Below are positions 35,951 to 51,798 of a stretch of DNA of 64,000 nt, piece after piece; within the stretch, counting starts at the first letter, position 1, and each line of letters begins with the position of its first letter. A model generated the notes under the pieces. The model was not told the DNA's origin. It saw only the letters and a list, made by a program, of their open reading frames with translations, and searched no databases. The translations under genes were made by a program, and so were the position numbers. This DNA comes from an uncultured Thermoleophilia bacterium (GTDB taxonomy: Bacteria; Actinomycetota; Thermoleophilia; UBA2241): the NCBI GenBank assembly GCA_963702475.1, contig CAVPCT010000003.1, positions 800,001 through 864,000 on the forward strand. The letters run 5' to 3'.

Positions 35951-36265
35951 TCACGAGGCAGCGAAGACGACCTCGGCGATGCGCGCCGCCGCCTCCTCCT
36001 GCATCGCCGGGATCGCGTGCGAGTAGGTGTCGAGCGTGATGGCGATGGTCGCGTGCCCGAGGCGTTCGGAGACGACCTTGGGGTGGATGCCGGCGCACAG
36101 CGTCAGGGTCGCGTGCGTGTGCCGTAGGTCGTGCAGGCGAATCACCGGCAGCCGTGAGCGCTTCACCGCCGCACGGAAGAAGCGGCTCACGACCTCCGGG
36201 TGCCAGGCCTCCCCGTCCTCCTTCGTGAAGACAAGACCAGCGTTTTCCTGGCCGTCTGCGCAGTC
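35951..36265 (-). pseudogene. Tyrosine integrase C-terminal remnant
   Basis: GLVFTKEDG..HP, RLHDLRHT, SERLGH, TLDTYSH; N-terminus missing. Confidence 0.88.
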
Positions 36266-36422
36266 GAGTACACTGGAGTTAACGGCGTGAGGGGCATGTA
36301 CGCCTCGGCCGACTCTTCGCGGACGAAGGCGGTCGCGTGCATCGCCTCGACCAGGCCCTCGTAGGTCTCGGCGCGGAGCCGCTGCCGCCGGCCGGTGTGG
36401 TCCTCCGTGGTCATGCTCAGCA

Positions 36423-37390
36423 TCATCGACCCTCCGCAGTCGTGGCCTCGGGCGCGCGCTCCCTGTCCCTTTGGCGCAGGTACGCGACGACGGCCGGCCA
36501 GTCCGGTTCCCGGGAATCGAACCGGATCAGTTCACCGGTGAACTCACCGGCGCCCTTCGTGTCCCTGTCGTCGATCAGGAAGTCGCCGCGGTTGAGGTCC
36601 TTGTGGTGGGTGAGGATGAGGCGCTTGTAGGCCGCCTCGCCGAGGTGCCGCTTCACCCACTCCAGCTTGTCCGACCAGGCCGACGGGTTCTCCCAGGGCG
36701 CCGTCGAGAGGACGTAGGTGTCGTAGAGCAGCGACAACTCCCAGTGCGCCTCGAGTGCCCCCCACACCGGTTCCATGAGGGCGAACACGCCGGGGATGTC
36801 GTCCTCGTGGCCCTCGTAGGCGGCCCGGACCTCTGCCGGGACGCGGTCGAGCCCCGAGCGGAAGTCGACGAGCACGCCGTCCATGTCCACGTAGAGGACT
36901 TGCGCGGCCGGCAGGCGGCGATGAGCCAGGCGCGCTGGTAGGGCTCGGCGTAGTAGCACGAGATGTCATCCTCGCTGCGCAGCTCGTTGCGCCGCAGCTC
37001 CTCGTCGACGTCGCAGGTGACGACCTCGCCGTGGACGCGGTAGCCGGCGCTCCTCAGGGCCTCGATGAGCTGCAGCGTCGGCTCGCGTTCCATGCCGACG
37101 ATCTCGGTGACGATGTTGCGGCGCTCGGCGACGGCGCGCTTGGCGACCAGGCGCCCGATGCGCTCCATGGGGCCCTCGAGCGGACCGGGGAAGTCGAAGT
37201 ACTCACCGCGGCTCAGGCTGAGGAAGATGTCGACCGCGTCGATGAGCACGTAGCCGCTCGCGTACCTCTCCTTGCGCAGCGTCGTCTTGCCGGCCGCGAC
37301 GCCGCCGGAGATGATGACCGCGACCGGCTTTTCGTCGGCCGGGATCGAGGCATCGTCGAAGAGCCTGTCCACTTCGGCGCGAACGTCCAT
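36423..37390 (-). CDS. P-loop kinase (zeta/AAA_33-like) probably fused to 5'(3')-deoxyribonucleotidase (NT5C HAD), frameshift near 36900
   Basis: SGGVAAGKTT, LIDAVD; then LYVDMDGVLVDF, LSTAPW, HHKDLNRGDFLIDD. Confidence 0.75.
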
Positions 37391-37917
37391 CGTGACCCCC
37401 TCCCGTGGCGACCCGCATACCATGCCTCCAACATCCATCATAGCCGTCGTCGGTGACGGCTCGGGGCGGAGCACGCTCGGCCGCCTCACTCAAGCTCGAT
37501 CCGGATTGCGATCTGCCCGTGCTCGGCCCGGCGATGGGTCGCTGCGTCGCGCTCTCGAGGGCCAAGGAAGCAGCTCACATCGTCAGGCCGGGCAACGGCT
37601 GTCCGTTCTCCTCCTCAAGTAGAGGCCCCTGCTCCGACTCCACCGGTGAGCGATGGCCCTGCTCCGAAGCCGGCGGCTGGCTGGCGAGAGGCCGGCCGGC
37701 CTTCCGAGTAAGGGGGTCGCTCGTCGCTCCCCGACGAGAGGTCGGGTCCATGCGGCACGGCGAAAGTATCAGGCTGAAGCCGAGGTCGAGGGTCTCGACT
37801 GGCGAGGTTGAGCTTCTGGTGCTGCTGAGGCAGGCGGTCGTGGCAATCGCCGCAGCAGTCGCGTGGCTATGTAGCCCATGCCTGCATTGCGCGCCGGCCT
37901 TTCCGACCCCTTTCTTC

Positions 37918-37986
37918 TTGACATCGTCATCGCCTCGTTCTATAAGAGTTCTGAACAAGTGTTCAGGTACCTGAGTGTGTGTTCAG
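37918..37986 (+). promoter_or_regulatory. Sigma-A promoter followed by two TetR-type operators
   Basis: TTGACA-N17-TATAAG; CTGAACA-AG-TGTTCAG (37951) and degenerate CTGAGTGTGTGTTCAG (37971). Confidence 0.75.
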
Positions 37987-38028
37987 CTTCACAAGCTGTG
38001 ATGCTCACTGAGATGGGGGAGCGGGGAC

Positions 38029-38641
38029 GTGGCGGGCCGGACGCCAATCGAACAGCTCAGGCGTTCCGAGCTTATCGACGCCACGATCGAGACCATCGCC
38101 GAGCGTGGCTTCCTGCGCACCACTGTGCGCGACATCGCCGAACGGGCGGGCTGTTCTCCCGCCGCCGTGCTCTACTACTTCCCCCGCAAAGACGATCTCC
38201 TCTCCGTCGCCTTCCGCGAATCCGACCAGCGATTCCGCAGCCGCGTACAGGCTGAGATCGCGCTGTACGAGGGCGCGTCGAAGCTGGACCGCGTCGTCGA
38301 ACTGTGCTTCCCCGAGGGCGAGGAGGAGGCCGTCTGGAATGTGGAGTTCGACGTCTGGGCGTTCGCCAGTCGCGCGGAGGATGCCTACTTCCGGGAGATC
38401 TTCGAGATCGCCAGCTCGGACTGGCTCGAACATCCTCACCGCTGCCGTCAGTGACGCCGTGAGGCGGGGTGACCTCGTCGTGCCGGACGCACGCGCCTGG
38501 GCAGTGAAATTCGCAGCCCTGATCGACGGGTTCGGCGTCCATACCCGAGTCACGAAGCACGTCGACAAGTCCACCGCGCGCAGGATGTTGCTCGCGGAGA
38601 TCGATTCGGTGCGGTCATCGACACGAGATGCGATCGACTAG
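38029..38641 (+). CDS. TetR family regulator, BetI-like, frameshift near 38430
   Basis: RRSELIDATIETIAERG..DIAERAG..YYFPRKDDL; AALIDG C-terminus. Confidence 0.88.
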
Positions 38642-38656
38642 GGGGAAGGAAGGGCC

Positions 38657-39839
38657 ATGGACAGGGCAGATCATAGCGGTCTCACCCGGCGAGAAGTCCT
38701 CAAGTACGGCACCGTGGCCGGGCTCGGCTTCACCGTGCTGCCCGGGCTGTCTGGCCGCGTGCGGTGAGTCTGGGACTACCAGTGCCTCGCCCTCGGCCGC
38801 GGCGAGTGCTGTGGTGGCGAAGCTGAATCCGGTAGCACGGTCAAGCTCCTCGCCTGGCAGGGCTACGACAACAAGAAGAACCTCGAGGCTCTCCTGAATG
38901 ACTTCGGAGTGAGCACGAGCACCACCTACATCGCCGGCGACCAGGAGGTCTTCACGAAGCTCGGGGCGCAGAAGGGCATCGGCGCCTGGGACGTACTCAC
39001 CTACAACTCCGGCCTCGTGCCGAGCCTCTTTGAGATGGGCGCTCTCGAGGGCATCTCGCCCTCCTCGGTGCCCAACTCCGCCGACATCTACCCCGAGTTC
39101 ATGACTCTCGACTTCATCCAGACCGGCGAGGGCGACAAGATGATGGGCATGCCCTTCTCATGGGGCTACCAGGGCTTCGTGAGGAGCGGCGACCTGCCCG
39201 AGCTGGCCAACTGGGACCAGCTCTTCGACGCGAGCTACAAGGGCAAGATCGTCACGGTGAACGATCCCACCACTGCCGTAGCCACCGCGTGCCTCGCCTC
39301 CGGGTTCACCCAGTACGACAAGCTCACAAAGGACCAGCTCGACCAGGTGATGGACTGGTGGTACAGGCTCAAGCCGAACCTGCGCACGATCCTCGGCGAC
39401 TACGGCGTGGCCAAGGACTTGCTAGTGCGTGGCGAGATCGATGGCACCGTGCCAGGCTGGCAGGCGATCGTCGCCTGGGCGGCGGCCGACGGCGCGACGC
39501 TCTACCACGACTTCCCCGAGCAGGGCGTCTACGGGTTCATGGACCTGCTGACGATGGTCAAGGGGACGAAGGACCCGGAGAACGCGCTCGGCTGGATCGA
39601 CTTCACGCTGTCTCCCGAGGCGCAGGCGAACCTCGCCACCGAGATGTCGCAGGGGATCACGAACCAGAAGGCCGTGCCGATGCTCTCGCAGGAGCTGCAG
39701 GACGCCTATCAGTACGTCAAGCCTCTCCGAGAACTTCCAGACCTCGCCGATCCGCAGGCTGCCTCCGTTCCGTGGTGAGGGTGACTACGTCGGCTTCGTC
39801 GACTGGGCCGCCGCGTGGGAGCGTTTCACGGCGGCGTGA
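38657..39839 (+). CDS. PotD/PotF-like ABC substrate-binding Tat lipoprotein, several frameshifts
   Basis: LTRREVLK Tat motif, LAAC, LLAWQGY, MPFSWG, WIDFTLSPEAQ. Confidence 0.8.
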
Positions 39840-39865
39840 CCTCGGCAGCCCTCTCGGGAGGTGCG

Positions 39866-41014
39866 GTGAGCAGCCTGGCGAGCAGCGACGCGGCGGAGGC
39901 CGCGGGCAACGTGGCGGCCGCGAGCGCGGCTGCGCGCACCGAGCCGGTGGTGCGTCTTCGGGGCGTCTCCAAGCGGTTCGGCGAGGTCGTCGCGGTCGAC
40001 GACGTGACCCTCGAGATCCCGCAGGGGCACTTCACGACGCTGCTCGGCCCCTCGGGCTGCGGCAAGACGACCCTGCTGCGCATGCTCGCCGGATTCGAGG
40101 AGCCGGCGACGGGGACGGTCGAGATCGACGGCCGTGACATGCGCGGGGTGCCGCCGGAGCGGCGCCCCGTGAACATGGTCTTCCAGCGCTACGCGCTCTT
40201 CCCGCACCGCAACGTCATCGAGAACGTGATGTTCGGACTCGAGTCGGCCCGCGTCCCGCGCCCGAGCGCTCTCGCTCGGGCGCGGGAGGCCCTCGCCACG
40301 TGCAACATCGAGAACCTCGAGACGCGGCGCATCAGCGAGCTCTCGGGCGGGCAGGCGCAGCGCGTCGCGGTGGCCAGGGCACTCGTCAACCGCCCGAAGA
40401 TCCTGCTCCTCGACGAGCCACTCGCCGCCCTCGACCTGAAGCTCCGTAGACACCTGCGCTTCGAGCTGCGACGCCTGCAGCAGGAGCTCGAGACGACCTT
40501 CCTCTACGTCACGCACGATCAGGGCGAGGCGCTCGCCATGTCCGACTCGATCGTCCTCATGAACGGCGGCCGCGTCATCCAGCACTGCTCGCCCGCGGGA
40601 GCTCTACGACGCGCCCAACTGCGTCTTCGCGGCGACCTTCATCGGCGAGGCGAACGTGCTCGAGCTGCACGGTCCGGAGCGTGGAGCAGGACGTGGCCGT
40701 GGTAGCTGATCGACGGCATCGCCATGCAGCGCCTCCACGCGCGGGCCGGTGCCCGGCGGGCGCCGCGGCACACCTCTACGTGCGCCCCGAGCGCGTCGTG
40801 CTGCACCGCGGGGGTGAGCGGGAGGGCCTCCAGGTGACGGTGACGGACGCCGCCTTCGAGGGCGGCATCGTGCGCTACTGGCTGACGGTCAAGGACGCGC
40901 AGATCGAGCTGGTGGCGGAGGCGCCGGTGCGCGCCGGCGACGAGATCTTCCCTGCTCGGCGCGAGCCTGCAGGCATCGTGGGAGGCGGGCGAGGCCCATG
41001 TCCTCCTTGAGTAA
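39866..41014 (+). CDS. PotA-like ABC ATPase, frameshifts in C-terminal part
   Basis: GPSGCGKTT, LSGGQ, LLLDEP, VTHDQ. Confidence 0.9.
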
Positions 41015-42721
41015 ACGGCGCAAGGATGAGCTGACCGTCGCCGGCGAGCTCGCGCCGCTCGGCACGTTGCTCCTGCTGGCCTTCTTCGTGCCGCTCAGCC
41101 TGCTGCTCGCCTACTCGTTCTGGAAGCAGAGCGGCTTCGAAGTCGTGCACGAGTTCACCCTGGCGAGCTACGTCACGGCGCTCACCGACACCTTCTATCT
41201 CAAGCTCCTGCTCCGCTCGCTCGTCATCGGTGCGGCCGTTGCCTTCCTCTCGGTCGCCCTCGCCTACCCCTATGCCTACGCCGCGACCTTCCGCTTCCCG
41301 CGCGCGCGAGGGGCGCTGCTGTTCGCGGCGCTTCTCTCCATGTTCACCTCCTACCTGGTGCGGGTGTACGCCTTCCAGACCATCCTCGGCGAGACCGGCG
41401 TCATCAACAGCGTGCTCCGGGGCCTCGGCCTGATCGACGAGCCGCTCTCCTTCCTGCTCTTCAACTCCTTCGCCGTCGTCATCACACTGACCAACGTCTT
41501 CCTGCCCTACGTGCTCCTGCCCGATCTGGGCGGCGATGCAGTCGGTCGAGCGCAACCAGCTCGAGGCGGCGCGCGACCTCGGGGCGACGGCCATTCGCGA
41601 CCTTCTGGCGCGTCGTCTACCCGATGACGAAGAACGGGGCCAGGGCCGGCTTCCTCTTCGCCTTCGTGCTGGCAGCCGGCGACTACGTGACGCCGACCCT
41701 GGTCGGCGGGCCGAGCGGCACGATGATCGGTCGCGAGATCTCGGTCGCCTTCGGCCTGCTCAATGACTACCCGCTCGGGGCGGCGCTCGCGTTCGTGCTG
41801 CTCATCGCCTTCGCCGTGGCGGCGTGGCTGCTGCCCGCGCTCGTCGCGCGCATCCCGCGGCCGCCCTCAGTGCGCTGGGTACTCTCGGCGCCGCTGCGCG
41901 CCAGCGACCACGTACGCCTGCCGCTCTCGCGCTACTGGGCGCACGCCTACGTGGTCGCCGTCGTGCTGTTCCTGTTCGTGCCCCTCGCCATCATCATCCT
42001 GCTTTCCTTCAACACGAGCTCGGTGCCGGCCTTCCCGATGCGCGGCCTCACCTTGCACTGGTACGCGCGCGTGTTCTCCAACATCTCGTTCCGCGACGCT
42101 CTCTACACGAGCCTCAAGGTGGCGGCTCTCACGGCGGCGATCGGCGCCGTCCTGGGCACGCTCGCGGCGCTTGCCTTCGCGCGCCACAAGTTCCGCGCCC
42201 GGGGGCCACTCATGGGCCTGCTCTTCGCCCCCCTCGCGATGCCGGGCCTGATCACCGGCATCGCGATGCTGACCGTCTACGTGGCGCTCAGCGTCACCCT
42301 CTCGCTCTGGACGATCACCCTCGGCCACCTCGTGTACGCGACGCCGTTCGTCGTGCTCGCCATCGTCGCCGGCCTCTCCGACCTCGACCCGGCCCTCGAG
42401 GAGGCGGGGCGCGATCTCGGCCGCGGCCCCTTCGGGGTGTTCCGCAAGGTGACGCTGCCGCTCGTCTTCCCGGTGATCGTGGGAGCGGCGTTCGTCGCCG
42501 CGGCGCTCTCGCTGGACGAGTTCATCATCACGAACTTCGTCGCCGGCAGCACCGTGACCTTGCCGCTCTACATCTGGTCCAAGCTGCGCATCGGCGTGAC
42601 CCCTGACACCAACGCTGTGGGGACGCTCATCCTCGTGGGTCTGGCGCTGCTCTCGCTCGCGGCCTGGTACCTCACGCGACTGACGTCGACCTTCATCAGC
42701 AGAAGAGGAGAATCGAAGTGA
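40998..42721 (+). CDS. ABC permease with PotB- and PotC-like halves apparently in one polypeptide, frameshifts near 41525-41600
   Basis: Two EAA loops (LEAARDLGA, LEEAGRDLG); no stop between the halves in ORF 41624..42721. Confidence 0.8.
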
Positions 42722-43870
42722 GCAGACTCCGTGTCGGCGTCGTCGGCCTCGGCGCGATCGCCCAGATCCAGCACCTCCCGAACCTCGAGCAGCTCCGCGA
42801 CGGCTACGAGCTCGCGCACGTCTGCGACCTCTCGCCGCGGCTCGTGGAGACCATCGGCGAGCGCTACGGCGTCGCGGCGCGCACGACGGACTGGCGCGAG
42901 CTGTGCGCGGATGCGAGCCTCGACGCGGTGATCCTCCTCAACTCGGGGTCACACGGACCGCAGGCGCGGGCGGCGCTCGAGAGCGGCCTCCACGTGCTCG
43001 CCGAGAAGCCGCTCTGCTTCACGGTGCGGGAGGCGGACGAGCTCGAGGCGCTGGCGCAGTCCAGCGGCCGCGTCCTGCAGGTCGGCTACATGAAGTCGCA
43101 CGAGGCGGTGATGGCCCGGGCGCGCGCTGAGGTCGAGCGCCTCGGCGACCTGCGCTTCGTGCGGCACGCCGTCTTCCATCCCTCCGAGGTGCAGCAGCAG
43201 GAGCACGTCAACGTGCTGCGCTTCGACGACGCCGATCCCGATGCGCTGCGCCAAGCTGCGGAGGAGAACGCGGTCCTCGTGCGGGAGGCGATCGGCGACG
43301 TCGCGCCGGGGCTGCAGTGGCTCTACAGCGAGCTCGGACTGGGGTCGATCGTGCACTACCTGGCCGTCTTTCGCTCGCTCTTCGGGCGCCTGCCCGAGTC
43401 GATCATCGCGGCCTACGCATGGCCTTTCGACCCGGAGAGCCCACCCCTCGGCTGGGGTCCCGACGACCAGCTGCCGACGCTCTCGGTCTTCGCCTCCTTC
43501 GGCGGCGAGTGTCGCCTCGACCTCACCTGGGCCTGGCTGCAGCGCTATCCCGAGTACCGCGAGCTGGTCGAGGTCTTCTCCCCCGAGGGCGGCGTGCGCC
43601 TGCAGCTGCCGCCCCCCTACCTCCATCACCGCACCGCGGCTCTGACCGTCGAACGCCTGGGCGGCGACGGCGGGCACGAGTCCGTGGGCGCCTCGGGCGC
43701 CTTCGACGCGGCCTTCCTGCGCGAGCTGCGCGACTTCCACGCGGCCGTGACCGAGCGGAGTACCAGTCGTCTCGACCGCGGCCGACGCTCGCGACGACGT
43801 AGGCTTCTGTCAGGAGCTTGTGGCGCGCGTCGCCGAGAGCCTCGCGGCGGATGTGGAGCGTGTGTCATGA
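42718..43870 (+). CDS. Gfo/Idh/MocA dehydrogenase (IolG-like), frameshift near 43765
   Basis: GLGAIA, HVLAEKP; corrected frame ends ..ERVS* overlapping iolB ATG. Confidence 0.85.
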
Positions 43871-44763
43871 GCACTGTCACGCCCTCGCCCGGCGAGAAGG
43901 TGCGGAGTCTCCACTACCGCGCCGGGCAACTCGCAAAGGGGGAGGATGAGCTCCTCATCACGCCCGAGCGGATGGGGTTCTCCTTCGCCGGCCTGCGCGT
44001 CGTGCGGCTCGAACCGGAGGCCACGCTCACGCTCCGGACGGACGCAGACGAGCTCGTCGTGCTGCCCCTCGCCGGCGGTTGCCGCGTCGAGACGGACGGC
44101 CTGTCGGCAGACCTCCAGGGGCGCGAAGACGTCTTCGCGCGCATCAGCGACTTCGCCTACGTGCCCCGCGACAGCGAGGTGCGCATCACGGCCGCCCGCA
44201 GCTGCGAGCTGGCCCTGCCCTCAGCCCGGGCGCGGCGCCGCCTCGAGCCCGCTTACGGCGAGGCCGAGGCGGTGGGCATCGAGATCCTCGGCGCCGGACA
44301 GGCGACACGCCAGAAGAACAACTACCTCGCGCCCGGGGGCCTCCCCGCGGACCGCCTCTGCCTGTGCGAGGTCCTTACCCCCGACGGCAACTGGTCCTCC
44401 TATCCACCGCACAAGCACGACGACCCGATGACCGGCGAGTCGGTCCTCGAGGAGATCTACTACTACCGCCTCGGCGGCGGTCCCGCCGCCTACGGCTGCC
44501 ACCGCACCTACGACCTCGAGCAGGGCTGGGACGTGACGGTGACGGTGCGTAGCGGCGACGTCTTCCTCGTGCCGCGTGGCTACCACGGGCCCTGCATGGC
44601 CGCGCCCGGCTATCCGATGTGGTACCTCAACGTGCTCGCCGGGCCCGCGGCGGAGCGCTCGCTCATCGTCGCCGACGACCCCGAGCAGCACTGGATACGC
44701 GAGTCCTGGCAGACGCAGGCGATAGACCCGCGCATCCCGCTGACGACGGCGGTGGCCCGATGA
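43867..44763 (+). CDS. iolB: 5-deoxy-glucuronate isomerase
   Basis: GNWSSYPPHKHD, LEEIYYY, VPRGYHGP, YLNVLAG. Confidence 0.93.
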   Translation: MSTVTPSPGEKVRSLHYRAGQLAKGEDELLITPERMGFSFAGLRVVRLEPEATLTLRTDADELVVLPLAGGCRVETDGLSADLQGREDVFARISDFAYVPRDSEVRITAARSCELALPSARARRRLEPAYGEAEAVGIEILGAGQATRQKNNYLAPGGLPADRLCLCEVLTPDGNWSSYPPHKHDDPMTGESVLEEIYYYRLGGGPAAYGCHRTYDLEQGWDVTVTVRSGDVFLVPRGYHGPCMAAPGYPMWYLNVLAGPAAERSLIVADDPEQHWIRESWQTQAIDPRIPLTTAVAR

Positions 44764-46697
44764 AGACGCGCCGGTTGACGATGGCCCAGGCCATCATCGA
44801 GTTCCTCACCGCCCAGGAGGTCGAGCGCGACGGGGTGCGCAATCGGTTCTTCGCCGGCTGCATCGGCATCTTCGGACACGGCAACCTCGCCGGCATCGGG
44901 CAGGCCCTGCAGGAGCGGCCCGACTTCCGCTATATCCAGGCGCGCAACGAGCAGGCCGCGGTGCACATCGCCTCGGGCTTGGCCAAGCAGAGCAGGCGCC
45001 GGCGCACCCTCGCCTGCACCTCCTCGATCGGCCCCGGGGCGACCAACATGGTGACCGGGGCGGCGGTGGCCACCGTCAACCACCTGCCGGTGCTGCTCCT
45101 GCCTGGCGACGTCTTCGCGGGTCGACGGCCCGACCCCGTGCTGCAGCAGCTGCAGGTGCCCTACGCCGGTGACGTCAGCGTCAACGATTGCCTGCGTCCC
45201 GTCTCGCGCTACTTCGACCGCCTCACGCGGCCCGAGCAGGCTCCGAGCGCCCTGTTGCAGGCGATGCGCGTCCTCACCGACCCGGCCGAGACCGGCGCCG
45301 TGACGCTCGCCCTGCCCCAGGACGTGCAGGCCGAGGCCGCCGACTATGCGGACGAGCTCTTCGCGCCGCGCGTCTGGCACATCCCTCGCGCCGTGCCCGA
45401 CGCGGCCGCCCTGGAACGTGCGGCCGCGCTGCTGCGTGCGGCCCAGCGGCCGTTGATCGTGGCCGGCGGCGGCGTCCTCTATTCAGAGGCCTCGGAGGCA
45501 CTCGCCGCGTTCAGCCAGGCGACGGGCATACCGGTCGCGGAGACCCAGGCCGGCAAGGGTGCGATGCACTTCGCCGACCCCCTCACCCTGGGGAGCGTCG
45601 GGGTCACAGGGACGCTGGCGGCGAACGCGCTGGCTCGCGAGGCCGACCTCGTGCTCGGCGTCGGTACCCGCTACTCGGACTTCACGACCGCCTCGCACAC
45701 CGCCTTCGCGGACCCTGACGTGCGCTTCGTCAACGTCAACGTGGCGGGCTTCGACGCCGGCCGCTTCGCCGGCTGCCCACTGGTCGGCGACGCGCGCGCC
45801 ACGCTCACCGCTCTGGCCGCTCTCCTCGAGGGCCACCGGTCTCGAGCGGAGTGGACCGCCAAGGCTGCCGCTCTCCATGAACAGTGGGAGGCTGAGCTCG
45901 AGCGCGTCTGCACCCCTCCCGACCAAGCGACGCTGACCCAGGCCGCGGTCATCGCGGCGGTCAACGAGGCGGCAGGGGAGGACGGCGTCGTGGTCAACGC
46001 CGCCGGGAGCCTGCCCGGCGACCTGCACAAGCTCTGGCGCAGTCGCCACCCGCGCTCCTATCACATGGAGTACGGCTACTCCTGCATGGGCTACGAGGTG
46101 GCCGGGGGAATCGGCGCGAAGCTCGCCGACCCCGAGAGGCCGGTGTTCGCGATGGTCGGCGACGGCTCGTGGCTGATGATGTCGAGCGAGCTGGTGACCG
46201 CGGTGCAGGAGGCGGTCCCGCTCGTCTGCGTGCTCGTCGACAACCACGGCTTCGCCTCGATCGGCGGGCTCTCGCAGTCGCTCGGCAGCGCGCGCTTCGG
46301 CACCGCCTATCGCAGGCGAGGAGCCGACGGGCAGCTGTCGGGCGAGCTGTTGCCGATCGATTTCGTCGCCAACGCCGCCAGCTTGGGCGCGCGCGCTCGC
46401 CGGGCAGACACGCTCGCGGAGCTGCGCGAGGCGCTCGCCGAGGCGCGGAGCAGCGAGCGGCCCGTCGTCATCGTCGTGGAGACGAGCCCGGACCACAGTG
46501 TCCCGAGCTACGGGTCGTGGTGGGACGTGGCCGTGGCTGAGGTCAGCGCGATGCCGGCGGTCGCGACCGCCCGGGAAGCCTACGAGACGGCGCGCCTCCG
46601 CGAACGACCATTTGTGGCGCCGGCTGGGGGTCGCGCGTCAGCCGATGTGCAGGCTGACCGTCCACCGAAGTCGGCCGGAGACGGGAGCAGCCCATGA
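44760..46697 (+). CDS. iolD: 3D-(3,5/4)-trihydroxycyclohexane-1,2-dione acylhydrolase (TPP-dependent)
   Basis: IFGHGN, SIGPGATNM, HMEYGYSCMGYE, GDGS. Confidence 0.95.
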   Translation: MKTRRLTMAQAIIEFLTAQEVERDGVRNRFFAGCIGIFGHGNLAGIGQALQERPDFRYIQARNEQAAVHIASGLAKQSRRRRTLACTSSIGPGATNMVTGAAVATVNHLPVLLLPGDVFAGRRPDPVLQQLQVPYAGDVSVNDCLRPVSRYFDRLTRPEQAPSALLQAMRVLTDPAETGAVTLALPQDVQAEAADYADELFAPRVWHIPRAVPDAAALERAAALLRAAQRPLIVAGGGVLYSEASEALAAFSQATGIPVAETQAGKGAMHFADPLTLGSVGVTGTLAANALAREADLVLGVGTRYSDFTTASHTAFADPDVRFVNVNVAGFDAGRFAGCPLVGDARATLTALAALLEGHRSRAEWTAKAAALHEQWEAELERVCTPPDQATLTQAAVIAAVNEAAGEDGVVVNAAGSLPGDLHKLWRSRHPRSYHMEYGYSCMGYEVAGGIGAKLADPERPVFAMVGDGSWLMMSSELVTAVQEAVPLVCVLVDNHGFASIGGLSQSLGSARFGTAYRRRGADGQLSGELLPIDFVANAASLGARARRADTLAELREALAEARSSERPVVIVVETSPDHSVPSYGSWWDVAVAEVSAMPAVATAREAYETARLRERPFVAPAGGRASADVQADRPPKSAGDGSSP

Positions 46698-47617
46698 ACG
46701 TCAAGGTATCGTCCGCGCCCTGCTCGTTCGGAGTCTGGGAGACCAACGTTGAGGAGGGCGTCCACCCCGAACCGGCGCAGTTCGTGCGGCTCGTGCGAGA
46801 GTGCGGCTACGAAGGGACCGAACTCGGTCCGCCCGGCTATCTGGGGAGCGGCGAGACAGTGGCGAGGCTCTTGCAGCAGGCCGACCTGCGGCTGGCCGGG
46901 TCCTTCCTGATGTTCCGCCTCTCACGGGAGGACGAGTTCCGCCAGGACCTCGCGGCCCTGGACGGGACGCTCGCCGAGCTCAGTCTCGCTGCGGGAGACA
47001 ACGAGCTGCCCATCGTCCTCCTCGCTGACGCGTTCGGCGCCGAGCCCGACAGGATGCAGTACGCCGGCGCCATCGAGCAGCATCCCGAGACGTGGTTGAG
47101 CGCGGAGCGCTCGAAGCTGCTCGTCGCCAACCTGCAGCGCACCGCGTATCGCTGCTGTGAGCTCGGCTTCACCTGCTCGCTGCACCCCGACTACGGCAGC
47201 TACATCGAGACCGAGCGCGAGATCACCTCGGTCTTCGAGGCCACCGACCCCGACCTCCTCGGCCTCTGTTTCGACACCGGCAACATCGCCTTCGCCGGTT
47301 CCCGGCCGGCCGAGCTCCTCAAGCAGTACATGCCGGTGGTGAACCACGTCCACCTGAAGGACCTCGATCTCGGCCTGCTCGCGAGGGTCCAAGGCAGTGG
47401 CCAGGGGGTGGAGGGCGCCTGGGACGCGGGGGTCTTCTGTGAGATCGGCAGCGGCGACGCCCAGGTCGCCGAGTGCCTCGAGGAGCTCGACCGTGCGGGC
47501 TACGAAGGCTGGCTCGTGGTCGAGCACGAGCGCCCACTGGTGGAGGGCTGGGCACTTGAGGACGCTGTAGCCGCGCAGCGAGCGAACCGAGCCTGGCTTG
47601 CTGATCGGGGGGTCTAA
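46694..47617 (+). CDS. Xylose-isomerase-like TIM barrel, IolE (inosose dehydratase)-like
   Basis: APCSFGV, ELGPPGYL, FDTGN, HVHLKD, WLVVE. Confidence 0.8.
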   Translation: MNVKVSSAPCSFGVWETNVEEGVHPEPAQFVRLVRECGYEGTELGPPGYLGSGETVARLLQQADLRLAGSFLMFRLSREDEFRQDLAALDGTLAELSLAAGDNELPIVLLADAFGAEPDRMQYAGAIEQHPETWLSAERSKLLVANLQRTAYRCCELGFTCSLHPDYGSYIETEREITSVFEATDPDLLGLCFDTGNIAFAGSRPAELLKQYMPVVNHVHLKDLDLGLLARVQGSGQGVEGAWDAGVFCEIGSGDAQVAECLEELDRAGYEGWLVVEHERPLVEGWALEDAVAAQRANRAWLADRGV

Positions 47618-47680
47618 CAAGCAGGCGATGTCTTTGAGTCACTCGAGCTGAGCGCCATGCCCTATCCGGAGGAGACGCAC

Positions 47681-48817
47681 ATGTCCGTCAGCACACCCTC
47701 GTCCTCGCCGGCCGAGCGGCCCGGCCCGACCCCGGCGGGTCCGCGCCGCGAGCCCCTTGAGGAGACGGCCGCGACCACCGCGACCGACTACTGGAACGAT
47801 TCCTGTTCAGTGGAGGAACTGGACTACGCCATCACCCGAGGGGCCGTCGGGGCGACGACCAACCCGACCATCGTCGGAGACGTGCTTAAGAAGGAGATGC
47901 ATCTCTGGCGCGAGCGCATCGCGGAGCTCATCGCCGGCAACCCGACGTGGACCGAGGACGAGGTCACCTGGAGGCTGATCGAGGAGATGGCGCAGCGCGG
48001 TGCCGAGCTGCTTCTGCCCGTGTTCGAGCGCGAGGGCGGCAGGAAGGGCCGCCTCTCCATCCAGACCGACCCGCGCTACTACCGCGACGCGGCGCGCATC
48101 GTCGAGCAGGCCGTCCGCTTCGCAGCGCTGGCGCCGAACATGCAGGTGAAGATCCCGGTGACGCACGCGGGCATCGCAGCCATAGAGGAGGCCACCGTGG
48201 CCGGCGTGAACGTCAACGCCACGGTGTGCTTCACCGTGCCGCAGGCGCTTGCGGTCGCAGAGGCGGTCGAACGCGGCCTCGCCCGTCGTGCGATGGCTGG
48301 CGAGGACGTCACTCCGATGACGCCGGTCTGCACGGTCATGATCGGGCGCCTCGACGACTGGCTGCAGGTACTGGTCAAGCGCGACGGCGTCGTGGCCGAC
48401 CCCGGCATCGTGCACTGGGCGGGGGTAGCCTGCTTCAAGAAGGCGTACGGCATCTTCATGGAGCGCGGCTACCGCACCCGCCTGCTGGCCGCGGCCTACC
48501 GCCACCACCTGCACTGGTCGGAGCTCATCGGCGGCGACGTCATCCTCACCATCCCCTACGCCTGGCAGCGCCTGTTCAACGAGTCCGACATCGAGGTCGT
48601 GCCGCGCATGGACGAGCCGGTGCCGGTGGAGATCGTCGATGAGCTCTACCGCCGCTTCCCGGACTTTCGGGGAGCCTACGACGAGGACGGCATGACGGAC
48701 GCGGAGTTCGACGCCTACGGCGCCACGGCGCGCACGCTGCGCGGGTTCATCAGTTCCTATCACGACCTGGTCGCCGTGGTCCGCGACTTCATGTTGCCTG
48801 ACCCGGACGTGAGGTAG
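47681..48817 (+). CDS. Transaldolase family protein with atypical active site
   Basis: WNDS, TTNP, SIQTDP, VKIP, NVNAT, MIGRLDD, AAAYR. Confidence 0.9.
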   Translation: MSVSTPSSSPAERPGPTPAGPRREPLEETAATTATDYWNDSCSVEELDYAITRGAVGATTNPTIVGDVLKKEMHLWRERIAELIAGNPTWTEDEVTWRLIEEMAQRGAELLLPVFEREGGRKGRLSIQTDPRYYRDAARIVEQAVRFAALAPNMQVKIPVTHAGIAAIEEATVAGVNVNATVCFTVPQALAVAEAVERGLARRAMAGEDVTPMTPVCTVMIGRLDDWLQVLVKRDGVVADPGIVHWAGVACFKKAYGIFMERGYRTRLLAAAYRHHLHWSELIGGDVILTIPYAWQRLFNESDIEVVPRMDEPVPVEIVDELYRRFPDFRGAYDEDGMTDAEFDAYGATARTLRGFISSYHDLVAVVRDFMLPDPDVR

Positions 48818-49163
48818 GTCTCCACCCGCGCACCGGTTCGCACGGCCGCCATGTGGACCGGTGCGCACCCGCTCCGAAATTGAATGCGCGATTCCAAGTC
48901 CGGCTCATCGCGCATCGAGATGTTCGGCATCACTGTGGGTGCAGGCGATATCTCAGGCTAGGCGAATGGCGTGCCGACATCTTGCCGACGAGATGCATCG
49001 CCACGGCCCATCACGACCAGTCACAGGCCGCCAGCGGGTCTACTCAGGAACCTGGACTGTGCAGCACAATTGCGTCTATCTCATTACGCCTGAGCACCGC
49101 CAGCTGACGACATCAAGACCCCCTGCAGATCCAATCGTGGAACAATGCCGTCGTGAGCTATCG

Positions 49164-50150
49164 TCACCCCTGGTCGTCCATGCCCGACTCCGCGAGCTCA
49201 CCCACGTCTGGCCAGGCTTCGTCGGACAGTCTGAGCAGATCTTCCTGCGACGTGCGCTGCGACAGGTAGGCTTCGACTGTGGGCCGCGACCAAGCTGACA
49301 AGAAGCGCAGGGTGAAGAGCTTGGCCTCCTCCGGATGCCAGGCGTGGGCCTCGATCAGGCGGGCGTGAAGCTCGGCCTTCGAGAGTCGCTCCGGGGAGTC
49401 GCGCAGCAGCCGCCCGATCTCCTGCTCGTAGACCTCGCTCCACCGGAGGCTCTCGTCGATCTGCGCGGCCACCTGCTCGCCCGTGAGCACGGGGGACGGC
49501 TGATAGCGATAGAGATGGGCTGTGACGAGCCGCTCCGCCTCGAGCTCGCGCAGGCGCCGGAGCGACGCGCGGTATGCCGCAACGTCGGTGATGATCGGCA
49601 GGCCCTGTGAGTAGTCGCCGTTGCCCTGCACAGCGTCGCCGCACAGGAGGAGGCGCTCGCCAGCGCACCACAGACTGATGGCCGTCGACGAATGGCCCGG
49701 GGTGTGCAGAACCTGGAAGACGATGTCGCCGCAGGCGAGCTCCTGTCCATCCGCGAGGGGGATGTCCACGCCGTCCGGCACCGAAGCAGCGGCGTCGGGA
49801 TGCGCGGCCACCGGCGCTCCCGAGGCCCGCTTGAGTGGGACATTGCCGAGCACGTGGTCGAAGTGGTCGTGGCTGTTGACGATGACGCGGATGGAGCGCG
49901 GTCCGAGCCCCCTGGCGCCCAGGAACGGCAGCAGGTAGGTGGCGGGGTGGTAGGCGAGGCCGGGGTCGACCACAAGTACGTCGTCATCGGCGATTACGAC
50001 CACCGTGCCGATGTAGATCGCGGCCGGTGAGATCACCCCGGTCGGTCCCCACAGGGGCGCGCGTACCAGGTAGACACCGTCCGTGACGGTCTCCCAGGCG
50101 GCCGGATAGTCGATGGCGAGGTGGCCGATGGTGCCGTAGCCGTCCATCAT
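49164..50150 (-). CDS. Metallo-beta-lactamase-fold hydrolase
   Basis: SHDHFDH, TPGHS, CGD, TAH. Confidence 0.88.
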   Translation of the reverse strand: MMDGYGTIGHLAIDYPAAWETVTDGVYLVRAPLWGPTGVISPAAIYIGTVVVIADDDVLVVDPGLAYHPATYLLPFLGARGLGPRSIRVIVNSHDHFDHVLGNVPLKRASGAPVAAHPDAAASVPDGVDIPLADGQELACGDIVFQVLHTPGHSSTAISLWCAGERLLLCGDAVQGNGDYSQGLPIITDVAAYRASLRRLRELEAERLVTAHLYRYQPSPVLTGEQVAAQIDESLRWSEVYEQEIGRLLRDSPERLSKAELHARLIEAHAWHPEEAKLFTLRFLSAWSRPTVEAYLSQRTSQEDLLRLSDEAWPDVGELAESGMDDQG

Positions 50151-50196
50151 TGCTGCCTCTCCTTTCCCCTCGGCCAAGGTCGCTTGTCTCGCGTGA

Positions 50197-51798
50197 CTAG
50201 CTGCCGAAGAAGTAGGTGTCGAGCCGGGCCTCCCCTTTGCCCAGCCCCAGTTTGCGTCTGATGCTGCGGCGATGGAAGGTCACGGTGGCCGGTGACAGGT
50301 AGAGCGTCTCCGCGATCTCGGCGGTCGTCCTGCCGGCGCGAATGAGGTTCAGGACCTCGGTCTCGCGGCGCGTAAAAGACGCCCGATGTTGGGCGCCCGC
50401 GGGGTTGCTCGCGGGCAGGCCCAGCAGCGGCCTGCTGATCTCTCGCAGCGAGCGGGCCAGCGCCTCCAGCTGGGCCGCCTCGGGCCGGAGGCCCAGAGAA
50501 CGGCGGGTGCGGTCGAGCGTGGGCAGCACGAACTGCTCGAGATTTCGGATGACGGTCTGCTCGAGGTCGTGGCGGTCCTGCTGCATCTGGCCGAGGGTGG
50601 CCACCAGCACGGCGTCGCGCTTCTCCAGCAGCTCGGCCTGCTGCCGCAGGGCACTCTCCGATTCCTCGAGTGCGCCGCGCAGATCGCGAAAGAGCGGCGT
50701 CACGTCCGTGCCAAGCAAGAAGGCGAAGCTGTCGCCGCCGACATTGCAGGGGACGATCGTGAAGAGCAGGTGGCGTGGCCTGTCGTCGTGATGCAGCTCC
50801 GCCTCACGGCGTTGAACGCTCTCCGTGGCCAGCGACTGCCGCACGGCGTCGGTGAAATCCTTGGCAAAGAGGTCCTCCAGTGCCTCGCCCAAGACGGCTT
50901 TCTCCGGAGCTCCCAGCAGCTCGAGGCCGGCGGGATTGGCGTCGAGAACGGTGATCTGGGCATCGACGCGGTAGGCGGGGTTGGTAGCCGTCGTGAACAG
51001 GGTGCGGTAGAGCTCCCTGGAGTCGCGCAGCGCCTGCTCGGCTTGACGCTCGCGCGTGATGTCCCGGACGGTGCCGACCTGGTGCGACGGCGACCCGTCG
51101 GCGCCAGTGATCACGATCCCCCTGTCCTGGACGAGGATGTAGCTGCCGTCCTCGCGCCGCATGCGGTACTCGCCGACGTACGGGTCTCCGCGTGCGACGG
51201 CGGCGTCGTTGGTGCGGATGACCTCCACGCGGTCGTCCGGGTGGATCCGCTCGCGAAAGCCGATGTTGGTGCGCGGCAGCCCCCCCGGCTCCAACCCCAG
51301 CATGAGGTCCAGTGGGGCGGTGAGCTCGACGAAGTCCGTCAGGATGTGCCAGTCGTAGTAGGCGTCGGCGATGCCTTCGAGGAGGGCCTTGAAGCGCTTG
51401 GCCGAGGCCCCCACGCCGGTGATGGCGCGCTCGTCTTCAACGACTTCTGTGAGTTCCACGACGAGATAGGGTCGAGCGTGATGCACCAGGCGAGCCTCGA
51501 ACCGCATCAAGCGAGCGTGGTCACGCAGATCGACCGTCAGCCGTCCACGTTGCGTCTCCCCTGGTCTCAGCGCACGGAACGCGGTCATCGGAAGGCCCTG
51601 TGGGCGGTCCGCGGCGAGGGCGCGCAGCCAAGCGGAGGTCGGCGGCGACCCACGCAGCCCAAGAGACGAACGGGCGGGCGTGTTGCCTGCGACGAAGCTG
51701 AGCGAGGTGGGGTCGAACACGAGCACCAGCGACCGCGACGGCAGCTTCAGGCAGTCGAGCTCGGATGCCGCTGCTTCCGCGTCGGACGTCGTGTTCAC
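50197..51798 (-). CDS. PAS-domain LuxR-type HTH regulator
   Basis: IHPDDR..EYRMRREDG PAS/PAC; FTRRETEVL..EIAETLYLS..HRRSIRRKLG. Confidence 0.9.
   Translation of the reverse strand: MNTTSDAEAAASELDCLKLPSRSLVLVFDPTSLSFVAGNTPARSSLGLRGSPPTSAWLRALAADRPQGLPMTAFRALRPGETQRGRLTVDLRDHARLMRFEARLVHHARPYLVVELTEVVEDERAITGVGASAKRFKALLEGIADAYYDWHILTDFVELTAPLDLMLGLEPGGLPRTNIGFRERIHPDDRVEVIRTNDAAVARGDPYVGEYRMRREDGSYILVQDRGIVITGADGSPSHQVGTVRDITRERQAEQALRDSRELYRTLFTTATNPAYRVDAQITVLDANPAGLELLGAPEKAVLGEALEDLFAKDFTDAVRQSLATESVQRREAELHHDDRPRHLLFTIVPCNVGGDSFAFLLGTDVTPLFRDLRGALEESESALRQQAELLEKRDAVLVATLGQMQQDRHDLEQTVIRNLEQFVLPTLDRTRRSLGLRPEAAQLEALARSLREISRPLLGLPASNPAGAQHRASFTRRETEVLNLIRAGRTTAEIAETLYLSPATVTFHRRSIRRKLGLGKGEARLDTYFFGS

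Follow-up and report, generated by a model that had tools for sequence, protein, structure and literature searches.

The window analysed here, a 64,000-nucleotide stretch of contig CAVPCT010000003.1 from an uncultured Thermoleophilia bacterium (G+C ~70%), carries an inositol-type catabolic operon whose last gene encodes an atypical transaldolase-family protein, referred to below as the enzyme. All genes between 38909 and 48817 lie on the + strand, with 4-base overlaps at most junctions, and are read as one operon. Downstream of an ATP-binding cassette (ABC) importer come a GFO/IDH/MocA-family dehydrogenase (42718..43870, +; PF01408 78.7 bits), iolB for 5-deoxy-glucuronate isomerase (43867..44763, +; TIGR04378 261.5 bits against a cut-off of 205; ATGA overlap at each end), iolD for the ring-opening hydrolase dependent on thiamine diphosphate (44760..46697, +; TIGR04377 904 against 715), a divergent IolE-like protein of the xylose-isomerase fold presumed to be an inosose dehydratase (46694..47617, +; PF01261 60.3 bits) and the enzyme itself, 386 residues long and of a Gln/Met/Ala type (47657..48817, +; PF00923 144.7 bits). 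These Pfam and NCBIfam scores bear out the gene order dehydrogenase-iolB-iolD-iolE-like-transaldolase given in a preliminary description of this DNA. The dehydrogenase gives 68 bits with TIGR04380 (cut-off 355) and the IolE-like protein 111 bits with TIGR04379 (cut-off 290), a model that gives 193-218 bits for the IolE of related loci.

IolB produces 5-dehydro-2-deoxygluconate (DKG), and IolA consumes malonate semialdehyde. In the canonical ending of the pathway in Bacillus subtilis, the PfkB-family kinase IolC phosphorylates DKG and the class II aldolase IolJ then cleaves the phosphorylated product (DKGP). The preliminary description had noted that iolC, iolJ and iolA are missing from the island, which we confirm and extend to the whole genome (4.3 Mb in 9 contigs; 93.8% complete, 6.5% contamination). 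Below, G000 is this genome, its contigs are labelled in the style C1-C9, and L and P numbers denote gene loci and public proteins, respectively. No iolC was found in G000: TIGR04382 reaches at most 52 bits there (cut-off 300), and three IolC proteins used as tblastn queries had no match at E 1e-5. PfkB kinases are nearly absent from it (best 52 bits), and it holds no DUF2090 (PF09863) gene. Its one class II aldolase match (PF01116) is on contig C5, and the only methylmalonate-semialdehyde dehydrogenase (MMSDH/IolA) over cut-off lies outside the island, at G000:C6:269320-270753 (TIGR01722 534 bits against 448.5). The iolD of the window is the sole copy over cut-off in the genome, which contains no IolG closer than the dehydrogenase of the window. 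The sole step missing between IolB and IolA is a C3-C4 cleavage, and the enzyme is placed between these genes in four phyla, mostly without iolC. From these sequence data we propose, with a probability of about 0.6, that the enzyme cleaves unphosphorylated DKG into malonate semialdehyde and a dihydroxyacetone unit.

Family, active site and fold of the enzyme

PF00923, the transaldolase/FSA superfamily (gathering score 27), is the sole Pfam domain found in the enzyme. The protein has neither a PF01116 nor a PF09863 domain and thus falls outside the IolJ and DUF2090 aldolases for DKGP. It also scores far under the cut-offs of the NCBIfam transaldolase models (PRK03343, 122 against 367; TIGR00876, 95.8 against 233.75; TIGR00874, 49 against 396) and of the FSA model TIGR00875 (55.7 against 245.95 bits). 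A phmmer search against the Protein Data Bank returned transaldolases only, the best being 3r5e of Corynebacterium glutamicum (E 1.8e-21), whose motifs SIEVD, IKIPAT and ASFFVSR align with SIQTD, VKIPVT and CTVMIGR of the enzyme.

The active site was aligned with TalB and FsaA of Escherichia coli, after the reference residues had been confirmed in the fetched talB and fsaA genes. Kept from TalB are Asp17 (Asp48 in the enzyme), Asn35 (Asn69), the Schiff-base Lys132 (Lys165), Asn154 (Asn187), Thr156 (Thr189), Arg181 (Arg231) and Arg228 (Arg282), and Ser176 is conservatively changed to Thr226. Three positions differ: Glu96 has become Gln136, a residue also present in FsaA, Phe178 has become Met228 where FsaA has Tyr, and Ser226 has become Ala280. 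Both Arg of the TalB phosphate site are therefore retained in the enzyme, and its Ser is replaced by an invariant Ala. The alignments with TalB and 3r5e agree with the residue calls made earlier by eye (Asp, Asn and Lys kept; Gln, Met and Ala as replacements). Across the clade, N69, Q136, K165, T189, M228, R231, A280 and R282 are invariant in 189/189 sequences, and N187 is kept in 188/189. Gln163, on the same strand as Lys165 and two residues ahead of it, occurs in 186/189 clade members compared with 21% of distant representatives.

The AlphaFold2 model (pLDDT 90.8) has a transaldolase fold. Its best Foldseek matches are 7oey, 3clm and 3r5e, all with probability 1.00 and TM (target) of 0.80-0.83, the value of 0.83 being that to the Neisseria gonorrhoeae enzyme (3clm/7oey) at ~23% identity. 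An exhaustive search of 50%-identity representatives found 4,536 relatives at E <=0.001 and 392 at E <=1e-30. We aligned 52 distant representatives, those 325-420 residues long among the 150 best, and most retain the D/N/Q/K/T/M/R/R pattern. On this alignment the Gln/Met pattern is the mark of a wide transaldolase-like subfamily, not of this clade alone. As a mark of DKG specificity the pattern was rejected, since it is common to distant family members and to a paralogue in the same genome. This Gln/Met-type paralogue, C2a (L101:5994-7310, equal to C2 29997-31310), is 29-31% identical to the enzyme and lies among genes for a HisC-like aminotransferase, a true transketolase, an amino-acid permease and an 805-residue transketolase-like protein.

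Occurrence was surveyed in two even class samples of 201 genomes each, one from the class of the window and one from the class of genome G034 (Anaerolineae), itself reached via the enzyme. The clade of paralogue C2a is present in 20/201 genomes of the window's class, all within the taxonomic family of the window. The enzyme occurs in only 9/201 genomes of that class and in 11/201 of the other. Its clade is an accessory gene, not a housekeeping one, and this rarity led us to reject it as the normal transaldolase of the lineage.

The same counts bear on the reading that the enzyme is an ordinary transaldolase for fructose 6-phosphate (F6P) and sedoheptulose 7-phosphate, balancing pentose-phosphate flux and having no part in acid cleavage. 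Near zwf, the genome of the window has a gene passing canonical transaldolase models (L102:5660-7315, or C2 ~262.7-264.3 kb; PRK03343 408.7 against 367). Its product has Gly (codon GGC, in IGIPGT) at the Schiff-base Lys position, together with N35D and N154D, and from its sequence looks catalytically dead or else misassembled. Another protein may have to supply the activity, and the enzyme has the TAL_FSA domain and a transaldolase fold. We nevertheless consider this role very unlikely: besides being rare, the enzyme lies far under all curated transaldolase cut-offs and has the catalytic Glu, Phe178 and Ser226 all invariantly replaced, and its placement among IolB, IolD and IolA and its inverse relation to iolC would be left unexplained.

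Proposed route and its relation to known systems

Gene content, active-site residues, fold, gene linkage and a distribution complementary to iolC are what the analysis shows; which compound is cleaved, at which bond and what becomes of the C3 unit we infer as follows. The importer of the operon would bring in a cyclitol, which the GFO dehydrogenase would oxidize; the IolE-like protein would perform the dehydration, IolD would open the ring and IolB would isomerize the ring-opened product to 5-dehydro-2-deoxy-D-gluconate, that is, DKG. The enzyme, acting as a class I (Schiff-base) aldolase of transaldolase fold, would form an imine between Lys165 and the C5 keto group of DKG, whereupon the C3-C4 bond would break and malonate semialdehyde would depart. 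The lysine-held dihydroxyacetone unit would then pass to an aldehyde acceptor, such as glyceraldehyde 3-phosphate (GAP) to yield F6P, or leave as free dihydroxyacetone. The malonate/methylmalonate-semialdehyde dehydrogenase encoded on contig C6 would convert malonate semialdehyde to acetyl-CoA and CO2. Neither the IolC kinase nor the IolJ aldolase would be required.

The geometry of the substrate is compatible with such a cleavage. By our derivation from Fischer projections, DKG numbered from the C6 end corresponds to D-fructose that lacks the C5 hydroxyl and carries a carboxylate at C6. On either side of the scissile bond it therefore has the D-threo (3S,4R) configuration that transaldolases and aldolases of the fructose-bisphosphate type cut. 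DKG has CH2-COOH where fructose phosphate has CHOH-CH2-O-phosphate. In TalB, Asn154 and Ser176 are the residues that we take to contact the free C1 hydroxyl of the donor; their counterparts in the enzyme are Asn187 and Thr226. The retained pair fits a free hydroxyl beside the keto group, which would argue against a phosphate there, and Arg231 and Arg282 fit an anionic substrate tail. For these reasons direct cleavage of DKG is favoured. We know of no member of the transaldolase fold that uses a 1-phosphorylated ketose, which weighs against a phosphorylated substrate.

As to the fate of the C3 unit, Met228 is unable to donate a proton, which leans towards transfer to an aldehyde acceptor over release. 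Gln136, however, is an FSA-type residue, and a DhaK is encoded on contig C5, so the unit may meet either fate. The presence of this dihydroxyacetone kinase, considered as a way to tell transfer from release, decides nothing. The suggestion of the preliminary description that the pathway variant spares ATP does not follow: where DKG and GAP give F6P, ATP is then spent at phosphofructokinase in glycolysis, and a saving would arise only where F6P is used as such.

Compared with IolC plus IolJ of B. subtilis, the enzyme would likewise act between IolB and IolA, and the products predicted for it, malonate semialdehyde and a C3 ketose unit, are the same. It has no relation to them in sequence or fold, is of the Schiff-base class I type and not metal-dependent, and is proposed to work free of phosphorylation, the C3 unit being dihydroxyacetone (bound or free) and not dihydroxyacetone phosphate (DHAP). 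With TalB and the long actinobacterial and neisserial transaldolases (1onr, 3r5e and 3clm) it shares the fold (TM 0.76-0.83), the Asp, Asn, Lys and Thr and the two distal Arg, and in length class it resembles 3r5e and 3clm. It differs from them in its ~23% identity, in the changes Glu96 to Gln, Phe178 to Met and Ser226 to Ala, in its scores below cut-off and in its position in iol clusters as opposed to a housekeeping setting. FSA is a true aldolase releasing dihydroxyacetone. E. coli FsaA shares with the enzyme the Gln at the transaldolase Glu position (FsaA Q59, confirmed in the gene) as well as Lys and Thr; FsaA, however, is of the short type (220 residues) with Tyr131 as proton donor, whereas the enzyme is of the long type and has Met at the Tyr position.

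One of the closest analogues of the proposed chemistry is found in sulfoglycolysis by the sulfo-TAL route, in which a transaldolase-family enzyme cleaves an unphosphorylated fructose analogue with an anionic tail and passes the C3 unit to GAP. The sulfofructose transaldolase BmSF-TAL (8bc3) is of the short type and gives a weak local phmmer match to the enzyme (E 3.5e-7 over ~76 residues). Its substrate tail is a sulfonate and its pathway a different one, whereas the proposed tail of DKG is a carboxylate. A full-text literature search gave no paper in which a transaldolase is connected with DKG, malonate semialdehyde, inositol cleavage or iol genes.

Phytate and plant tissue make inositol one of the major carbon sources in soil, and the seven-enzyme route by which bacteria degrade it is textbook knowledge. 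If our proposal is true, this route would have a second, kinase-free ending carried out by a transaldolase-fold enzyme. Since the clade is widespread among uncultured members of the Chloroflexota, Actinomycetota, Acidobacteriota and Verrucomicrobiota, inositol use in these phyla would go unrecognized by pathway tools that demand iolC and iolJ. A carboxylate-tailed substrate would likewise be added to the transaldolase family, beside the sulfonate-tailed one of sulfoglycolysis. The Gln/Met-type branch thereby opened up would number at least 392 clusters (50% identity, E <=1e-30), and no solved structure is closer to it than ~23% identity.

Gene neighbourhoods, iolC and the closest relatives

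A protein search returned at least 8,000 relatives of the enzyme, the best 120 of them 71-100% identical. Neighbourhoods were taken from the best 80 of 552 relatives confirmed in species genomes, giving 79 distinct loci in four phyla: Actinomycetota, Chloroflexota, Acidobacteriota and Verrucomicrobiota. Taxonomically, the loci span Thermoleophilia, Solirubrobacterales and Gaiellaceae, together with Anaerolineae and other Chloroflexota, Terriglobia and a single Verrucomicrobiota genome. Neighbours were counted by tblastn with the proteins of the window and proteins from the loci, and the counts are lower bounds since many loci end a few kb from the enzyme gene; representatives pass the curated models (TIGR01722 573 bits, TIGR04380 467 bits). 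IolB is a neighbour in at least 43/79 loci and IolD in at least 40/79, one or the other lying within 10 kb in at least 45/79. An IolE-type protein is found in at least 35/79, IolA/MMSDH in at least 28/79 and IolG (>=40% identity) in at least 12/79, compared with at least 6/79 for IolC. The linkage is tight: the enzyme is <=300 bp from IolB or IolD in 27 of the 45 iol-linked loci, and IolA is <=160 bp from the enzyme in 19 loci.

A relaxed PfkB search found a PfkB-like match other than IolC in just 2/79 loci. Neither this search nor the annotated neighbour clusters (those of 5-7 loci annotated in part) yielded a conserved alternative kinase beside the enzyme. Two public proteins join the domains of the pathway in one chain. 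P0128 (655 residues) fuses an IolE-like xylose-isomerase TIM barrel to a transaldolase-like domain, and P0147 (566 residues) joins a transaldolase-like domain to an IolB/KduI domain, although the latter fusion may be an artefact of gene calling or read-through.

We profiled the genomes of 50 of the 79 loci for iolD and iolC. Of these enzyme-bearing genomes, 41 have iolD (38 over cut-off); iolC is over cut-off in 7 and lacking in 43. In the class samples, the 201 genomes from the window's class include 9 with the enzyme, 13 with iolD and 7 with iolC near or over cut-off, the corresponding numbers for the class of G034 being 11, 35 and 23. Among the 48 iolD-positive genomes, iolC alone is present in 27, the enzyme alone in 11, both in 2 and neither in 8 (Fisher p ~2e-4, a descriptive value that is overstated, the related genomes being non-independent and two of them chosen as sample centres). 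The enzyme is thus largely complementary to iolC. Profiling of the clade against iolC had been put forward earlier as a check, with co-occurrence to speak against the idea; the pattern obtained is mostly complementary, and co-occurrence is confined to a minority, 6 of the 45 iol-linked loci.

Several observations weigh against direct cleavage of DKG. The six loci in which iolC shares a cluster with the enzyme are L041, L042, L047, L053, L061 and L088, and in L061 the order is IolB, enzyme, IolC, IolD, iolC standing directly between the genes for the enzyme and IolD. The genes annotated in four of these clusters (L041, L042, L047 and L061) include neither a class II aldolase nor a DUF2090 gene, nor any other aldolase; they encode GFO dehydrogenases, LacI-type regulator or binding proteins, a class III aminotransferase, an aldehyde:ferredoxin oxidoreductase and a saccharopine-dehydrogenase-like protein. 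Of five iolC-linked genomes, one has a DUF2090 gene on another contig and four have class II aldolases elsewhere; G034, with iolC beside the enzyme, has no PF01116 or DUF2090 match anywhere in its assembly. Clusters of this kind would fit an enzyme acting after the kinase. Moreover, iolC and the enzyme are both lacking in 8 of the 48 iolD-positive genomes, which implies other pathway endings or assembly gaps. The dehydrogenase and the IolE-like protein of the window are well under the IolG and IolE cut-offs. With neither the catalytic Glu of transaldolase nor the Tyr of FSA, the acid-base chemistry has no explanation, and the Gln/Met pattern, shared by a wide subfamily that includes the paralogue near a transketolase, is alone no pointer to DKG. 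Nine of the 50 enzyme-bearing genomes lack iolD, among them those of the four closest relatives, L012-L015, and in L013-L015 the enzyme gene is flanked by mobAB on one side and on the other by modABC or a molybdate transporter of the major facilitator type (MFS_MOT1). All genomes in the analysis are metagenome-assembled, a further caveat. The core idea of the preliminary description, cleavage of DKG without a kinase, accordingly draws support from the rarity of the clade, its iol linkage, its complementarity to iolC and a coherent chemistry, and is weakened by the iolC-linked minority and by closest relatives that lie away from iol genes.

In a rival reading the enzyme would replace IolJ only, cleaving DKGP to DHAP and malonate semialdehyde, with a kinase still needed, be it IolC or a kinase elsewhere that escaped recognition. 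Enzymes from iolC-linked loci are dispersed over a quick maximum-likelihood tree, with at least three origins, and no separate subclade of them was seen; therefore the same enzyme works with and without iolC. This scatter, together with the aldolase-free annotated clusters and G034, speaks for an IolJ substitute, which we nevertheless judge unlikely. iolC is lacking in 43 of the 50 enzyme genomes and in 11 of the 13 iolD-positive, enzyme-bearing genomes of the class samples, the genome of the window is nearly devoid of PfkB kinases and no kinase family is conserved among the annotated neighbours. Asn187 and Thr226, at the positions presumed to hold the C1 hydroxyl in TalB, are also kept.

One iolC-linked locus has a further feature. 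In L061 (4252-8974; Anaerolineae), IolB is immediately preceded by genes for a class III aminotransferase, a tungsten-type aldehyde:ferredoxin oxidoreductase and a saccharopine-dehydrogenase-like protein, a set that hints at an amino-cyclitol or an alternative aldehyde-oxidizing step.

The closest relatives raise a different question. On the quick tree the protein of the window clusters with L012-L015 (support 99; 80-85% identity). In L013-L015 the adjoining protein matches the large subunit of pyrogallol hydroxytransferase, 4v4c_A, over its full length (E = 0, 1214 bits), and the island also holds a transhydroxylase Fe-S subunit, an AOR-like protein and IclR regulators. A candidate phloroglucinol reductase beside the enzyme in L014 was rejected, the short-chain dehydrogenase/reductase (SDR) there being generic. 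The transhydroxylase homologue occurs in 40/201 genomes of the window's class and is accompanied by the enzyme in only 4 of them; the family is often multicopy in the class, some copies having in-frame stop codons.

Such surroundings could mean that the clade acts more broadly, as a lyase that forms malonate semialdehyde from 3-hydroxy-5-oxo acids and works also or mainly on 3-hydroxy-5-oxohexanoate (from phloroglucinol or pyrogallol) or on another keto acid, with the iol link as one use. A precedent for the reaction is HOHA of the Collinsella phloroglucinol pathway, an aldolase which, according to a review, splits 3-hydroxy-5-oxohexanoate into malonate semialdehyde and acetone ahead of a malonate-semialdehyde dehydrogenase (PMC13039779). 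DKG is the 4,6-dihydroxy form of the HOHA substrate. The review files HOHA under EC 4.1.2.4, the number of deoxyribose-phosphate aldolase (PMC13039779), so HOHA probably belongs to another family than the enzyme. Within the class sample, three of the four enzyme-positive, iolD-negative genomes carry the transhydroxylase homologue, adjacent to the enzyme in two, and the genomes of L012-L015 have no iolD. We regard this broader function as rather improbable, however, since the enzyme is lacking in 36 of the 40 genomes that have the transhydroxylase homologue (26/26 in family f4), and the mob/mod island in the genome of the window (C3:563-568 kb) contains no transaldolase-like gene. Nor was a phloroglucinol reductase or cyclohydrolase identified among the neighbours, and release of acetone requires a proton donor, for which Met228 cannot serve.

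The two uses can be joined in a wider, and doubtful, reading: the clade might be a general carboxylate-tail transaldolase/aldolase, forming malonate semialdehyde from any 3-hydroxy-5-oxo C6 acid and serving cyclitol as well as anaerobic trihydroxybenzene breakdown, as one member of a large Gln/Met-type branch acting on non-phosphorylated substrates. If this were true, two major plant-carbon routes would meet at one enzyme in peat and soil bacteria.

The genome of the window itself encodes four homologues of the pyrogallol hydroxytransferase large subunit, 63-88% identical to the L013 protein (C2:356640-359201, C9:106022-108589, C4:267313-269892 and C3:566812-568512). Transaldolase-family genes near molybdenum-cofactor genes are also found in E. 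coli K-12, where talB lies beside mog and fsaA beside moeB/moeA; the adjacency there and in L013-L015 may be coincidence.

Importer, reading frames and flanking genes

The operon opens with an importer, several of whose reading frames are broken. Its genes encode a solute-binding protein of PotD/SBP_bac_8 type (38909..39778, +; PF13416 79.8 bits), a PotA-type ATPase with its C-terminus out of frame (39815..40705, +; PF00005 128.5 bits) and two permeases, PotB- and PotC-like (40998..42721, +; PF00528 52.3 bits in the second open reading frame (ORF)). Because of frameshifts the permeases read as ORFs 40998-41627 and 41624-42721, the translation of the second opening with the tail of the first permease. 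The imported compound may be a cyclitol other than myo-inositol, since the dehydrogenase and the IolE-like protein match the IolG and IolE models poorly and the importer belongs to the polyamine type.

A 12,974-base short-read contig, found in two peat metagenome runs, is syntenic across 38837-48820 at ~91% identity, and stems from a relative, not from this strain. Single bases are missing in it at 39721, 40595, 40661, 40704, 40728, 40752, 40953, 41067, 41520, 41588, 43754 and 43757, which are the 12 indels listed out of 34 in the comparison. All 12 have the same direction and fall at apparent frameshifts of the importer and dehydrogenase genes, so these frame breaks are probably assembly errors rather than decay. 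Thus the solute-binding protein ORF is probably shortened by an indel, the peat contig having one base fewer at 39721; five single-base differences fall in the ATPase tail (40595-40752), and those at 41067, 41520 and 41588 fall in the permeases. The reading frames from iolB through the transaldolase-like gene are intact.

An apparent fusion of the dehydrogenase to IolB was ruled out on the same grounds. The ORF 42718-44763 (681 residues) has a GFO_IDH_MocA domain at residues 4-124 followed by IolB. Three-frame translation places a frameshift near 43754-43757, after which the dehydrogenase C-terminus resumes in another frame, its TGA overlapping the iolB ATG (ATGA, 43867-43870); bases 43754 and 43757, precisely at the shift, are those missing from the peat contig.

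No sequencing run contained more than 0.09 of the sampled words, and there was no RNA run among the runs listed. A promoter and terminator scan of 36000-50500 gave no promoter-like site and one terminator-like site, which lies outside the operon. Upstream of the operon, 36000-38900 (G+C 0.66-0.67) holds only ORFs with no NCBIfam match, and no operon regulator was identified there. Beyond the operon, on the - strand and convergent on its end, 49164-51798 encodes a metallo-beta-lactamase-fold protein (337 residues) and a PAS-PAS-LuxR regulator (533 residues).

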